Of a DNA stretch of 64,000 bases, positions 59,264 through 63,808 are shown in pieces. Each line of letters begins with the position of its first letter. Positions within the stretch are counted from its first letter, which is position 1. Position numbers and translations under genes: made by a program. Origin of the DNA: Nanobdellota archaeon (GTDB lineage: Archaea; Nanobdellota; Nanobdellia; CSSed11-243R1); contig JAGGWW010000007.1 in the NCBI GenBank assembly GCA_021163365.1, positions 13,929 through 77,928 on the forward strand, in the 5' to 3' direction. A model generated the notes under the pieces. That model did no database searches, had not been told where the DNA came from, and was given only the letters and a program-made list of their open reading frames with translations.

Positions 59264-59428
59264 AAAATCACCTTAATAATTTATTAAAGCACTTTTTATA
59301 TATAAATGTTTTCACTATTAGATGATAACAAATATTTTTATACTCTTGAAAACTATATATATTAGGCAGTTCAATGGCGTTAAGCATGGCTACCATATAA
59401 CCGCTAACCCAAAACCAATCCACATCTG

Positions 59429-59840
59429 CAAAGAGATTGGGCCTTAGAATCTCAATGCAGATGCCTGGGTTAAGTTATATGGTGCCATGGGGAGCAGGCT
59501 GTTTGGCTTGGATTGGATTTTTCAAAAGGAGTCAAACAGAAAAACTCCCCCATTGAGCCCAAAGTAATCAAAGGGGTATTGCCTTGTGCAGTGTTCCTAT
59601 GATTACAATGCCTTCGGGCAGTTCCAGTGCCTTTTGGCAAGACAAGTGCCAAACCTCTGGTTGCAAACCAGCCCAGGTCTCATGAAAGAAAGGGCCTTAG
59701 AATCTTTCATGAGATCCAGCAACTAAAGTTTGGTGCTTTGTCTTGGGAAGTAACTTCACCTGCAGTTGGGCTGGGTCCTTCGGGATCAGAGAACTGCAGG
59801 GAAGCTAAACTTCCCACTGGAGCCCAAAGATTTCTTTGAA
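59429..59840 (+). ncRNA. Structured GC-rich non-coding RNA of about 410 nt (candidate SRP 7S RNA or RNase P RNA; identity unresolved)
   Basis: GC content is well above the flanking sequence. Two hairpins are closed by UUCG tetraloops on the plus strand (UGCC-UUCG-GGCA at 59609-59620; GGUCC-UUCG-GGAUC at 59776-59789). A perfect 12-bp hairpin UCUCAUGAAAGA/UCUUUCAUGAGA has the loop AAGGGCCUUAGAA, and that loop sequence GGGCCUUAG recurs in a second hairpin at 59437-59458. The possible terminal helix CAAAGAGAUUGGGC…GCCCAAAGAUUUCUUUG would pair the 5' and 3' ends. GGUGCCAUGGGGAGCAGGC resembles the SRP domain-IV GG(A)AGCAGG element. The only ORFs here are two short overlapping frames. Confidence 0.5.
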
Positions 59841-59933: not shown

Positions 59934-60485
59934 ATGACGTTCATTTTAGTTTCAGTAATTGTTGCAATTGCTGCATCAATTGGAGGATTAATTGCAATTT
60001 ACACAAAAAAGGAAATTGAACAATTTGACAAATGGATAAAATATTCTGAAATTGCACTTTCTATACTTCTTGCAATTTTGATGATAAGCGTGCATAAAAG
60101 CGTGTGGCCTGTGTTGTTCTTAATTGTTGGTGCAGTATTTGTCATTCTCTTAAATAAATCTCTTTTCCACATTCATTTGAATAGATTTATAAGAGCGCTC
60201 ATGTTTGGATTTGCACTTGGAATATTGTTTAACATAAACAGAGATATTGCATTTCCATTTGCTGTTATCTTATCACTTCACAATATAATCAAAGGAAGCA
60301 GGATTGGTGCATACTATCTTGACAAAAGAAAAAACATCTTTAAGGTTATTGGTAATTTCCAAGCAATTTTTATAATCGCTGCGCTGTTAGGTTTTTATGT
60401 TTTCTCGAATCAACTCCTACAAGCAGTAGTTTTAAACTTTGCAGCAGGAGCAGTTATAACAACTGCAATTGGAACTAAAATCTAA
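59934..60485 (+). CDS. Polytopic membrane protein (183 aa)
   Basis: 6 hydrophobic segments. No family assigned. Confidence 0.45.
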   Translation: MTFILVSVIVAIAASIGGLIAIYTKKEIEQFDKWIKYSEIALSILLAILMISVHKSVWPVLFLIVGAVFVILLNKSLFHIHLNRFIRALMFGFALGILFNINRDIAFPFAVILSLHNIIKGSRIGAYYLDKRKNIFKVIGNFQAIFIIAALLGFYVFSNQLLQAVVLNFAAGAVITTAIGTKI

Positions 60486-60507
60486 TTTCTTTGATGAAAC
60501 TTTCTTC

Positions 60508-60918
60508 TTAAGAAAGTGTTTTTGACAATTCAGCCAAAGGATGTCCTTTTACTTTTGTTTCAAATTCTTTATAATATCCAAAGGGTGCTCTAAAGACATC
60601 AATTCCTTTTTGTTTTGCAAAAGATTCCATTTCTTTGAGAATTGTTATTGCAATTGATGGTGTTGCCAAATTATTTGAAAGATGAGCATAAGGATAAATT
60701 AACAAGCAATCTGCTTTAACTTCATCTATTTGTTTTTTAACTGCAATTATCGCATTTCGTGCTGTTTCTGGTTCATCTCCTTTTTCAACACTAACTAATG
60801 CCACAATCACGTTTTTAAACTCTTTTTGTTCGCCATCTCTGTTCTCTGGCAAAATCTTCATTGCTGGCTTTGTTACCTTATACCTAAAGTATTCGCAATG
60901 CCATTGAAGTATTTTCAT
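60508..60918 (-). CDS. Free-standing archaeal ThrRS-type editing domain (D-aminoacyl-tRNA-deacylase-like fold)
   Basis: [13 protein letters not shown]…[26 protein letters not shown]…[24 protein letters not shown] aligns with the N-terminal editing domain of archaeal ThrRS (e.g. …VLVAFISVEK…[21 protein letters not shown]…[24 protein letters not shown]). ATGA overlap with the upstream catalytic gene. Confidence 0.85.
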   Translation of the reverse strand: [136 protein letters not shown]

Positions 60919-62381
60919 CTACTATCACTCCATGCAACAAAAATTGGCCTCTTTGTTAAAAGTCGTGGGACATACATTGGCCTTTTTGGGAATTCTCCAT
61001 ATTTTTCTTTAAACATTAAGATAAATTCATCTTTTGTCATCTCAACTATTTTTTCTTCTTCAGCCTTTGCTCCTTCTCTTATTACAACCTTAAGCTTACT
61101 ACCCCCAACTTCTTTATCACCAATAACAATTATGTATGGAATCCACCTCATCTTTGCATCGTGAACTTTTTTTGGAACTCTTTCACTTCTATCATCAATT
61201 CCAACACGTATGCCAGCTAATTCAAATTCATCTGCTAATTTCTCTGCAAATGGTAAATGCCTATCTGCAACAGGAAGCAACCTAACTTGTTCTGGAGAAA
61301 GCCACACTGGGAGCATCGGTAAAAACCCTTCTTTTTCCATACCAGCAGCTCTTTCAAGCATACTGCACAATGCACGCTCTACAGAGCCAAAAGAAGAAGC
61401 ATGTAAAACAATTTGAATTGGGTGTTTTTTGTTATCTTTTCCGACATATTCAAACCCAAACCTTTTTCCATTTTTAACATCCCACTGAACTGTTGAAATC
61501 TGTAAGTTATTCCCATCAGGCAAAATAGCTTGAAACTCATTTTTAAAAGCATAGTAATGCCACATTTCTCTCATTATCTTAAAGAAAGCTGGCATGTTCA
61601 TCTTTTTAATTATCTGTTTAAACCATTCCTTGTATTTATCAAAGTATTCATTTACAACTTCCCAACCAAAAGCCCAATCTTTTGCTATCATGCTTTCCAT
61701 GAGTTGTTGAAATTGCAAACAAAGTTCTTCGAACTCTTTTTTTGCAGATTTCTCATCTGCGCATAACGCGTGCATGTCACTCATTGTAAAATTGCGGACT
61801 CTTGCAAGGCCTAAAAGCTCGCCTGATTGTTCTCTTCTAAAGCAAATTGCTTCTTCATAAACCTTTAATGGAAGATGATTGTATGTATAAATCATCCTCT
61901 TAATTGCTGGAAAAGCACCAGGGTCAGAAGCAAATCTTAAAACAAGTTCCTTGTCGTCTGATTTAACTTTATACTCTCTTTCAAGAAACTCTTTCATTAA
62001 CTCAGCAACTTCCTTTACACTTGTTCTATACAACAAAGGATTTTGTATTTTAACAGCACCCCATGGGAGAGCAATGTTCTTTAATGCATAATCAAGTATT
62101 AAGTCTTTAATTAAAACACCATTTGGATACCATTTCATATTACCAATGTCGCTTTCAGGACAATAATCAACAAGTTCTAATTTTCTCATATAATCTATGT
62201 GCTTTGGCTCTTGTTTTTTCTCTGGTTTGCCAACAAGCTCGTTCCTAACAAAGTTCTTTAATGCCATGTACTTTCTGTCTTTCTTTTTCCACAGCTCACA
62301 TTTCTCCCAGTTATCCTTATTTACCTCATACTCTTTTCCATCAACGTCAATTATAACCCACCTAAAAAATTCACTTGGCAT
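60915..62381 (-). CDS. thrS: Threonyl-tRNA synthetase, catalytic core plus anticodon-binding domain (no editing domain)
   Basis: Class-II aaRS motifs (…FRREQSGELLGLARVRNFTMSDMH…, …HASSFGSVERAL…) and a C-terminal anticodon-binding domain (…LPVWLSPEQVRLLPV…IRVGIDD…). Confidence 0.9.
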   Translation of the reverse strand: MPSEFFRWVIIDVDGKEYEVNKDNWEKCELWKKKDRKYMALKNFVRNELVGKPEKKQEPKHIDYMRKLELVDYCPESDIGNMKWYPNGVLIKDLILDYALKNIALPWGAVKIQNPLLYRTSVKEVAELMKEFLEREYKVKSDDKELVLRFASDPGAFPAIKRMIYTYNHLPLKVYEEAICFRREQSGELLGLARVRNFTMSDMHALCADEKSAKKEFEELCLQFQQLMESMIAKDWAFGWEVVNEYFDKYKEWFKQIIKKMNMPAFFKIMREMWHYYAFKNEFQAILPDGNNLQISTVQWDVKNGKRFGFEYVGKDNKKHPIQIVLHASSFGSVERALCSMLERAAGMEKEGFLPMLPVWLSPEQVRLLPVADRHLPFAEKLADEFELAGIRVGIDDRSERVPKKVHDAKMRWIPYIIVIGDKEVGGSKLKVVIREGAKAEEEKIVEMTKDEFILMFKEKYGEFPKRPMYVPRLLTKRPIFVAWSDSR

Positions 62382-62421
62382 AAATTATAGCAGAGGCTTC
62401 ACTTTTTTATTTCTTTTGCTT

Positions 62422-63444
62422 TTACAATTCTTTTTGAGCGTTCTTCCATAACACTTCAAAATAATCTCTTAGAGAATTAGCAACATTTTTATCCTTTATT
62501 ACCACAACTTCTGGTATTTTAGTCCAAAGGATTATCGCAACTTTATCAGAATAAATATTAATCACAGCATGCGATTTTGTCCTTTTCTTAATGAATCTAA
62601 CTTCTGTTGTTTTTGATGGCTTTACATCCCTTCCTTTTCTTACAAGATGTCTTATTTGAATATTCTTCTTTTCTGTTTGATTAATAAACCATTTAGCAAA
62701 TTCTGGCATCCGTTCGGCAAATTGGCCTTCCGAATCTAAAACACAGTTTGGCTGGTTTTCAGCTAAGATGTCCTTAAAAACTTTTTTGACGCCCTCTTCA
62801 CCATAGAATAACTTTATTTTTCTTTCAAAATAAAATTCTTTAAACATACTCTTTATAATTTTTACAGCAGATTCCCTCATCTTACCTTCTGGATCCTCAG
62901 GAATTATTACGTGGGCTCTTTTTGCACTTGGTTCAATAAACATTTTATGAGCTGGTCTCACAAACCGGTTCCATTGCTCTATAACTGATTTCACATCCCT
63001 ACCTCTTTCTATTACGTCACGTTGAATCCTCCTTATTAATCGAATATCAGGTGGTGTTTCGACAAAAAGCCTTACTTTCATGAGGTTGCAAATTTCTTCA
63101 TCATAAAGAGCAAATATACCTTCAATGATTATAACATCTTTAGGTGTAACAATTTCATAACCAATTCTCACATGTTTGGTAAATGAGTATATAGGTGCCT
63201 TTACTTTTTTGTTTTTTAAAAGTTGCTTTATTTGTTTTCTAAAAAGAGGCCAATCAATGGAATTGGGATGATCAAAATTTACCTTCTCTCTTTCTGCTGG
63301 CTTTATCTTACTTAAGTCTTTGTAATACCTGTCCATAGAAATTAAGAGAACTCTATCTTGACCAATTTCTTCGGCTATCATTTTTGCGAGGGTTGTTTTT
63401 CCAGAACCGCTACCACCTGCTATTCCCATCAAAAACTTTTTCAT
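62422..63444 (-). CDS. udk: Uridine kinase fused to a C-terminal TrmB-C-like (putative ligand-binding) domain
   Basis: N-terminal GIAGGSGSGKTTLA (P-loop) with …DRYY…, DHP and IIEGI motifs of Udk/PRK. The C-terminal about 130 aa end …VAIILWTKIPEVVVIKDKNVANSLRDYFEVLWKNAQ, resembling the TrmB C-terminal domain. Start set at MKKFLMGIAGG. Confidence 0.7.
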   Translation of the reverse strand: MKKFLMGIAGGSGSGKTTLAKMIAEEIGQDRVLLISMDRYYKDLSKIKPAEREKVNFDHPNSIDWPLFRKQIKQLLKNKKVKAPIYSFTKHVRIGYEIVTPKDVIIIEGIFALYDEEICNLMKVRLFVETPPDIRLIRRIQRDVIERGRDVKSVIEQWNRFVRPAHKMFIEPSAKRAHVIIPEDPEGKMRESAVKIIKSMFKEFYFERKIKLFYGEEGVKKVFKDILAENQPNCVLDSEGQFAERMPEFAKWFINQTEKKNIQIRHLVRKGRDVKPSKTTEVRFIKKRTKSHAVINIYSDKVAIILWTKIPEVVVIKDKNVANSLRDYFEVLWKNAQKEL

Positions 63445-63511
63445 AGATATAAATAGCAGATAGATATTTATTAAGTTTAAGCGAGGAAGTATTTTTTCGG
63501 CAGTGTGATAA

Positions 63512-63808
63512 TTATTTCTCTGTTTTTTCTTTTCCAAGTTTAAACAATTTGATATATTCTTTGCTATAAGGTTTCCACTTAATTGTGCCAAGTTTGAATT
63601 CCTTGAATTCGGGAATTTCAGCTAAATTCCAATCAAAACCTTCTTCAAACAACTTACAAGGAAAATCTTTACATAAAAAGCAACATTTAATATTTCTTGA
63701 GCTCGCACATTCAGCAATTTCACATCTACCACATAATTCTAAAAGTTTTTGGCATCCTGGACATTTTTTTCTCTGAAAGCAGGACATAATGAACAACAAA
63801 TCCCGCAA
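63512..63808 (-). CDS. Cys-rich hypothetical protein (about 90 aa)
   Basis: CPGCQKLLELCGRCEIAEC…CCFLCKDFPC: multiple CxxC pairs. Confidence 0.4.
   Translation of the reverse strand: MRDLLFIMSCFQRKKCPGCQKLLELCGRCEIAECASSRNIKCCFLCKDFPCKLFEEGFDWNLAEIPEFKEFKLGTIKWKPYSKEYIKLFKLGKEKTEK

Follow-up and report, generated by a model that had tools for sequence, protein, structure and literature searches.

The 64-kb stretch of DNA analysed here, referred to as the window, comes from an uncultured DPANN ('Nanoarchaeota') archaeon and carries a two-gene threonyl-tRNA synthetase (ThrRS) locus, in which a 488-aa synthetase without an editing domain (ED) is followed by the gene of a bare 136-aa ED. We propose that the locus encodes a two-protein ThrRS, in which the 488-aa protein charges tRNAThr and the 136-aa protein, assigned to the DTD fold, acts as a minimal deacylase that hydrolyses Ser-tRNAThr in trans by recognising the acceptor end only; we give this reading a probability of roughly 0.78. 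The ancestries of the two genes are discordant, and the pair is chimeric. The features of the locus are as follows:

60915..62381, minus strand: thrS-cat, ThrRS of 488 aa without ED, with class II catalytic core and anticodon-binding domain (group I of the three ThrRS groups described below)
60508..60918, minus strand: ED gene, bare editing domain of 136 aa, predicted Ser-tRNAThr deacylase
60915..60918, minus strand: ATGA stop/start overlap (TGA of thrS-cat, ATG of the ED gene), read from the sequence
60924..60931, minus strand: Shine-Dalgarno (SD)-like GGAGTGAT, 5 nt before the ED ATG and within the last thrS-cat codons (W-S-D)
62382..62421, minus strand: spacer of 40 nt between the uridine-kinase-family gene and thrS-cat
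62422-63591, minus strand: uridine-kinase-family gene, 389 aa (PF00485, PRK), directly upstream of thrS-cat

Domain content of the two proteins and the junction between them

The preliminary description of this locus had read the 488-aa protein as a ThrRS without the N-terminal ED and the open reading frame (ORF) of 136 codons as a relative of that domain, and both readings hold. A Pfam search of the 488-aa protein returned PF00587 (tRNA-synt_2b, residues 137-343) and PF03129 (HGTP_anticodon, residues 365-459), and did not find PF08915 (tRNA-Thr_ED). Against NF003068, the archaeal ThrRS profile of 613 positions, the protein scores 448.5 bits (E 3e-134; below the equivalog cutoff of 484) and covers positions 155-612, with positions 1-154 absent; the missing segment is the one matched by the downstream ORF (profile positions 1-138, 140.9 bits). 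Both genes thus tile one canonical archaeal ThrRS, cut at a domain boundary and placed in reversed order. This permuted order with the synthetase first, already pointed out in the preliminary description, is opposite to the domain order of fused enzymes and is kept in every linked relative examined. An ED remnant upstream of thrS-cat was considered and rejected, as only 40 nt separate thrS-cat from the preceding gene and a tblastn search of the whole 64-kb window showed no second copy of the ED or of the synthetase.

The thrS-cat product is 60-62% identical to full-length ThrRS of Aenigmatarchaeota (636-639 aa), and its N-terminus MPSEFFRWVIIDVDGKEYEV aligns to ...KFHRFMIIDVDGKEYEV, the stretch of those longer enzymes that immediately follows their ED and linker. 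The conserved motif 2 is FRREQSGE...RVRNF, and both zinc-ligand histidines are kept. In the Cys-His-His zinc site by which ThrRS rejects valine, the position of the cysteine is occupied by aspartate (D153, motif LRFASDPGAFP; ASDPGA, versus MNCPGH in bacterial enzymes and AACFGQ in group II). Aspartate stands at this first ligand position in all group-I ThrRS examined, including full-length ones labelled Aenigmatarchaeota, Thermoproteota, Bathyarchaeia and Nitrososphaeria. Within motif 2, group I has cysteine (ICFRKEQ) and group II serine (YSFRREQ) at the same place.

The 136-aa protein matches PF08915 from end to end (residues 1-134 on profile positions 1-136 of 137; 151.3 bits with a cutoff of 30.2; E 2e-44) and contains the peptide strings that had been cited for it. 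The solved EDs of P. abyssi, M. jannaschii and A. pernix are full-length matches with E between 3e-30 and 1e-24 (3e-30 to 2e-25 for PDB 1y2q, 2hl1, 4rrf and 4rr6), well outside what chance would give; the best of them spans ED residues 1-135 (E 3e-30), A. pernix 4rr6 reaches E 2e-25, and the P. abyssi domain is 43% identical to the window ED. In the N-terminal domain (NTD) of P. abyssi ThrRS (Pab), the residues within 6 Å of the scissile bond are P80, F81, A82, H83, Y120, K121 and the cross-subunit E134 (PMC4491819). Window residues Y116, K117 and E130 correspond to Pab Y120, K121 and E134, and P76, Y77, A78, H79, F113, G114 and Y115 to Pab P80, F81, A82, H83, F117, G118 and Y119, so that the conservative replacement of F81 by tyrosine (window Y77) is the sole active-site change. 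The ED is under strong purifying selection, with dN/dS values of 0.05-0.11 versus five relatives (Nei-Gojobori; synonymous sites near saturation). In the NCBI database the same protein is annotated as 'threonyl-tRNA synthetase editing domain-containing protein [Nanoarchaeota archaeon]'.

The preliminary description had also contrasted this bare single domain with crenarchaeal ThrRS-ed, which proved correct: the anticodon-binding domain (PF03129) was not found on the 136-aa protein, which stops at residue 136, and the match to NF011500, the crenarchaeal ThrRS-ed profile ('Ser-tRNA(Thr) hydrolase'), is confined to its N-terminal editing domain at positions 1-132 of 387 (121 bits, cutoff 362; E 5.6e-35). 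The ED therefore lies outside the NF011500 family, though it probably works like ThrRS-ed. Compensation for the missing anticodon-binding domain by additional positive charge was rejected, since stand-alone EDs are no more basic than fused ones (mean net charge +0.9 versus +1.1 for EDs in cis; sd 2.7), and there is thus no sign of an extra tRNA-binding surface.

The shared ATGA of the synthetase stop and the ED start, which appears as TCAT on the plus strand (60915-60918), was confirmed in the raw sequence. Because the two ORFs overlap in different frames and one indel would join them, a sequencing or assembly frameshift might have split a single ORF, or a programmed -1/+2 frameshift at ATGA might produce a C-terminal ED fusion. 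The refutation named at the outset, a sequencing error or a C-terminally fused ORF, is not borne out. The exact 136-aa protein occurs on at least 10 contigs in public databases. The PRK gene, the genes of the 488-aa and 136-aa proteins and the membrane gene recur together at six loci, drawn from five metagenome assemblies that are independent of each other (three ENA, two JGI). The junction is identical in all six contigs, and the differences of 0-5 nt are without exception synonymous. The ED ORF begins at the canonical Met1 (profile position 1) and has an SD-like site of its own, and the synthetase stops at its natural C-terminus (profile position 612 of 613). A HMMER search of 1.84 billion representative proteins yielded 687 ED homologues, and among the best 150 of them the ED was always N-terminal or the whole protein and never C-terminal. 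Relatives differ in the relative frame of the two genes and show in-frame stops, gaps of 1-112 nt and, in one case, an intervening ORF:

4-nt overlap: window, L005, L087/L088, L096
1-4 nt gap: L006, L009, L010, L011
59 nt: L001
112 nt: L007
inserted 101-aa ORF: L008

Taken together, the identical junctions, the varied relatives and the absence of a C-terminal ED among the best 150 homologues make a frameshift, whether artefactual or programmed, very unlikely, to the point of being almost negligible. The ORF inserted in L008 (L008:4618-4923) has a hydrophobic N-terminus, MMRLFAGLLAVVFFLIAWIILTLIV..., and overlaps the thrS stop by 4 nt.

Discordant ancestry of the synthetase and the editing domain

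Stand-alone EDs of 133-139 aa form about 31 clusters at 90% identity, are 56-100% identical to the window ED and come from metagenome bins labelled Nanoarchaeota, Woesearchaeota and Aenigmarchaeota (taxon names of metagenome-assembled genomes, MAGs, are the depositors' labels throughout). Six GTDB species representatives carry such an ED. In L004 the ED is solitary, with no synthetase gene within 4 kb on each side.

ThrRS relationships were inferred from a neighbour-joining (NJ) tree of 44 cores with corrected p-distances, in which three groups appear, each with its own active-site motif. Group I (LRFASDPGAFP) holds the window synthetase together with full-length ThrRS of Aenigmatarchaeota, Thermoproteota, Bathyarchaeia and Nitrososphaeria. 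Group II (LRFAACFGQF) holds full-length ThrRS with Micrarchaeota and Woesearchaeota labels and, from L001 and L005-L011, synthetases without an ED (bootstrap 97); group III has the bacterial-like motif PMNCPGH. In the sister genomes L006-L008, the synthetases that occupy this place share 85-90% identity among themselves and only 39-40% with the window synthetase. The surrounding genes follow the sisters closely: the EDs of L006-L008 share 84-88% identity with that of the window, the methyltransferase beyond the membrane gene is 85-88% identical to its orthologues there, and the convergent downstream membrane gene is 67% identical to that of L007. Over the 136 columns of the ED tree, the phylogeny proposed earlier as a check places the window ED with those found beside group-II synthetases; its identity is 45-54% with EDs of groups II and III and only 36-41% with those of group I.

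With the synthetase in another deep ThrRS group and the ED and downstream genes orthologous to those of the sisters, we conclude that the synthetase was probably replaced in situ. The sister genomes have nothing at this place that corresponds to the uridine-kinase-family gene (62422-63591), which thus marks a synteny break at the replaced synthetase. The product of this gene has a uridine kinase/PRK domain at residues 55-235 (E 5e-47) and a C-terminal extension of about 150 residues without a Pfam match.

Plain in-place fission of one gene was rejected for this lineage, as the affinities of the ED and the synthetase are discordant. The term 'split' used in the preliminary description thus does not describe the history of this lineage, the two genes being of different ancestry.

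Native group-I pairs (L087/L088 and L096/L097) have another lineage of stand-alone ED. The EDs of L087 and L096 share 52% identity with one another and 39-42% with the window ED, and their stop/start junction, GCATGG(A/G)GTGA..ATGA, is near-identical to that of the window. In the group-I ED-less lineages examined, an ED lies immediately downstream in three of seven, and four of seven have no adjacent ED. One contig of 4.9 kb, L086 (Logan SRR26701722), encodes a synthetase that is 77% identical to that of the window and ends in the same ...AWSDSR tail; the order of genes upstream of it (SPP, ATPase, MiaB-like) is typical of genomes with a group-II synthetase, as in L009. A comparison of L086:4440-4520 with window positions 60480-60960 shows that the ED gene is cleanly deleted and that the remnant ...GGAGTGATAGCAGATAA abuts the stop of the membrane gene.

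The simplest account of these comparisons would have three steps, in which (i) ancestral members of the family carried an ED-less thrS of group II with a resident ED ('ED-A') downstream of it; (ii) the common ancestor of the window and L086 lineages exchanged the synthetase in situ for a group-I ED-less thrS; and (iii) the window lineage retained ED-A, which L086 later lost.

A further architecture was observed in many DPANN MAGs (L012-L085, GTDB Woesearchaeota and Pacearchaeota; for example L013:5001-6731), which encode a 560-593-aa group-III ThrRS. These enzymes join an archaeal DTD-like ED to a bacterial/eukaryote-like core (PMNCPGH, DDAHIF, HRAIFGS) that is 24-29% identical to the cores of groups I and II, and represent a third architecture within the superphylum.

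Proposed editing in trans

Based on these comparisons and on published work with isolated domains, we propose the following hypothetical scheme, in which (i) one operon would express both genes, the SD-like site and the overlapping start providing for roughly matched synthesis; (ii) the 488-aa protein would aminoacylate tRNAThr and, as expected for all ThrRS, form some Ser-tRNAThr; (iii) the 136-aa ED, by homology to the solved domains, would act as a homodimer with a cross-subunit glutamate; (iv) recognition by the ED would rely on the aminoacyl-A76 end and probably on U73 as discriminator, with no need for an anticodon-binding domain; and (v) the ED would hydrolyse Ser-tRNAThr once the tRNA has left the synthetase. 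The pair would be modular rather than the product of simple fission, with ED-A kept and the upstream synthetase exchanged.

The trans editing of Ser-tRNAThr put forward in the preliminary description is well supported as a prediction by the intact active-site residues, the low dN/dS and the published in vitro activity of isolated domains. Excised NTDs from three archaea cleave Ser-tRNAThr and spare Thr-tRNAThr, with a kobs of 0.209/min for PabNTD and 0.352/min for ApThrRS-2, in which the domain is linked to an anticodon-binding domain (PMC4491819). The isolated P. abyssi domain also tells Ser-tRNAs apart, probably via the U73 discriminator (PMC11295145; PMC8762117). Because the linked ThrRS itself has no ED, the window ED is the presumptive primary proofreader of this synthetase.

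Two other ways in which the ED might function have to be weighed. In the main competing reading, it might dock non-covalently on the dimer of the 488-aa protein and rebuild an enzyme that works as if in cis, the CCA end being shuttled to the ED while the anticodon stays bound. Such docking would fit the tight and conserved adjacency of the genes, a 4-nt overlap that favours equimolar co-translational assembly, a cut exactly at the natural domain boundary, and stand-alone EDs without extra positive charge. We nevertheless consider it rather unlikely. Nearly the same ED (84-88%) partners synthetases from different deep groups that are only about 39% identical, which is hard to reconcile with a co-evolved interface. 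Moreover, the ED is unlinked in L004, and lies 59-112 nt or another ORF away from the synthetase in some relatives, and isolated NTDs studied in vitro are almost as active as the protein linked to an anticodon-binding domain (PMC4491819).

Alternatively, the ED may have another or a broader task, acting on other mischarged tRNAs that bear U73 (for example Ser-tRNACys) or on hydroxyacyl- or D-aminoacyl-tRNAs, with the adjacency to thrS being historical. Bare tRNA-Thr-ED proteins linked to SepCysS and tRNACys are found in methanogens and MSBL1/Hadesarchaea, and other substrates have been proposed for them (PMC5424206, PMC8762117); in addition, a protein that lacks an anticodon-binding domain has no means of reading the anticodon, and some relatives have lost the ED or carry it unlinked. 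This explanation appears highly improbable in view of the intact serine-pocket residues Y116, K117 and E130, of which the glutamate varies in divergent tRNA-Thr-ED groups (PMC5424206 Text S1). The linkage to ThrRS genes that lack precisely this domain is also specific and recurs in two independent synthetase lineages, and the ED and its synthetase are flanked by genes of a uridine-kinase-family protein and a membrane protein rather than by SepRS/SepCysS.

Several points weigh against the proposed two-protein system. The first zinc ligand, cysteine in bacterial ThrRS, is aspartate in this synthetase, as throughout group I, and for many archaea a group-I enzyme was the only ThrRS found. An additional ThrRS with an ED, or some other editing factor, may be encoded elsewhere in the genome; the best 80 loci included no second ED locus from any of the six GTDB relatives, the MAGs being incomplete. 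The ED loss in L086 and the four of seven group-I lineages without an adjacent ED suggest that the ED may be dispensable, or else encoded elsewhere, in those lineages. Finally, the trees are distance-based (NJ, corrected p-distances), and support is poor at the deep nodes of the ED tree (136 columns).

Within the two-protein reading, a stronger version can be put forward tentatively as a less probable possibility: the bare ED may be an autonomous, partner-independent proofreading cassette without a covalent link or a co-evolved interface, so that DPANN lineages could place ThrRS cores of different deep groups, only about 39% identical, in front of it, or even delete the ED, as in L086. If this is true, the cat/ED operon would be a natural test of acceptor-end-only tRNA specificity by a 136-residue DTD-fold protein. 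If ED-less lineages truly have no other editor of Ser-tRNAThr, they would be natural archaea that tolerate Thr-to-Ser mistranslation.

Translational coupling, a further part of the preliminary description, is plausible from the ATGA overlap and the SD-like GGAGTGAT. An SD-like 4-mer occurs at positions -20 to -4 of 17 of the 53 long ORFs in the window, versus a background of 9%, with (G)GTGAT as related motifs, and (G)GTGAT-like motifs also precede the ED genes of relatives with any type of junction. GGAGTGAT would serve as the ribosome-binding site of the ED gene. Co-transcription of thrS-cat and the ED gene is plausible, possibly with coupling by termination and reinitiation; since the spacers vary among relatives, with gaps of up to 112 nt, coupling does not appear to be a conserved requirement. 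Upstream of thrS-cat, no SD was found in the 40-nt spacer, which is A/T-rich and contains AAATAAAAAA about 22-31 nt before the ATG. This spacer may be the promoter of a leaderless thrS-cat/ED transcript, or thrS-cat may be co-transcribed with the upstream gene.

Neighbouring RNA candidates and comparison with known systems

Just beyond the membrane gene lies a GC-rich island (45-54% GC, versus about 30% in the background), which contains two candidates for structured RNAs:

59612-59828, minus strand: structured RNA candidate 1, tandem paralogue
59360-59563, minus strand: structured RNA candidate 2, tandem paralogue

Each candidate, about 205-217 nt long, has two arms and is closed by the stem 5'-GGGCUC...GAAnUGCCC-3'; a loop of 13 nt, AUUCUAAGGCCC, is conserved. 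Syntenic copies of the island occur at L006:6009-6483, L007:6008-6487, L008:5968-6175, L009:6015-6505 and L010:2349-2839, and most relatives have a TATA-like box of archaeal type, TTAATAAATATTT, some 25 nt before the RNA candidates. RNAalifold predicts a Y-shaped fold with 51 pairs, 33 of which show compensatory double changes, and 91.8% of the cells are paired versus 29-46% in slid controls. No Rfam 15 family matched the window segment or five syntenic loci at E<=1, and a covariance model of the island RNA recovered the syntenic copies and none further in the window or in 48 other loci. A pattern scan of metagenome_contigs gave no match either, a zero without weight because JGI contigs that fit the pattern are evidently missing from that collection too. 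These RNAs may represent an undescribed DPANN family. Across the 64-kb window, ARAGORN found no tRNA genes, and there were no Rfam matches at gathering thresholds.

The closest known counterpart of the two-protein ThrRS is the crenarchaeal ThrRS-cat/ThrRS-ed pair (Sulfolobus, Aeropyrum), for which aminoacylation and editing on two proteins are described (Korencic et al. 2004, as cited in PMC5424206 Text S1 and PMC4491819). Both systems distribute the functions over two proteins and use the same DTD-like domain, the window ED being 45% identical to that of S. solfataricus ThrRS-ed. In contrast to ThrRS-ed, which has about 390 aa, an anticodon-binding domain and a degenerate core, the window ED is a bare domain of 136 aa; the window genes are adjacent and overlapping with the synthetase first, and the catalytic partner belongs to the archaeal type of ThrRS, minus the ED.

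Bare tRNA-Thr-ED proteins were defined by Mukai et al. in 2017, who pointed out that these, 'contrary to all previously reported' Ser-tRNAThr editors, have no anticodon-binding domain (PMC5424206, Text S1, Fig. S4; see also PMC8762117). The window ED resembles them in being a single ED-homologous domain without an anticodon-binding domain, and is 35% identical to the MSBL1 tRNA-Thr-ED. It differs from them in its context: the proteins of Mukai et al. accompany SepCysS, tRNACys and sulfur genes in methanogens and MSBL1/Hadesarchaea, with substrates related to tRNACys proposed, whereas the window ED stands beside an ED-less ThrRS. No association with SepCysS, tRNACys or sulfur genes was found among its neighbours (PRK-family kinase, thrS-cat and membrane protein), the window beyond them not having been scanned for SepCysS.

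In length, fold family as judged by sequence, and active-site residues, the window ED equals the laboratory NTDs (1y2q, 2hl1, 4rrf, 4rr6; Ahmad et al. 2015, PMC4491819). Those were truncated from enzymes that are fused or linked to an anticodon-binding domain, whereas the window ED is naturally a free-standing gene product. The sufficiency of the bare domain in vivo has so far rested on such laboratory truncations, and the present locus and its relatives show natural use with an ED-less ThrRS.

DTD, AlaX-S and ProXp/YbaK are likewise small stand-alone deacylases, with homology to editing domains of synthetases, that act after release of the tRNA and recognise acceptor-end elements such as N73 (review PMC11295145). 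They differ from the window ED in their substrates and, except for DTD, in their fold, and none is the sole editor in an operon with an ED-less ThrRS. The same 2024 review of editing factors gives only ThrRS-ed, with its anticodon-binding domain, as a free-standing ThrRS editor (PMC11295145). In the literature searched, which left most subscription journals outside, we found no description of a split ThrRS with a bare ED in DPANN archaea or Nanoarchaeota, and the only related reports were those of SepCysS-linked tRNA-Thr-ED.

The relatives span about 31 protein clusters (90% identity), six species of GTDB and two ED lineages that are independent of each other. The separate exchange of editor and synthetase bears on U73/A76 recognition as the source of specificity, on domain gain and loss of aminoacyl-tRNA synthetases in reduced genomes and on the tolerance of DPANN archaea to mistranslation, and the locus offers a compact natural pair for biochemistry and synthetic biology.

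Exchange of divergent ThrRS types in Archaea was reportedly described by Andam and Gogarten in 2011 as ThrRS 'homeoalleles' and biased gene transfer. As with homeoalleles, divergent ThrRS types have swapped at the same locus here (window versus L006-L011, and L086); unlike them, the exchange concerns ED-less cores and leaves a separately encoded ED behind. Bare tRNA-Thr-ED proteins (2017, in another context) and the public annotation as 'editing domain-containing' were already known. What is new is the chimeric pair, with independent exchange and occasional loss of the two modules, which goes beyond a routine split gene without overturning current understanding.

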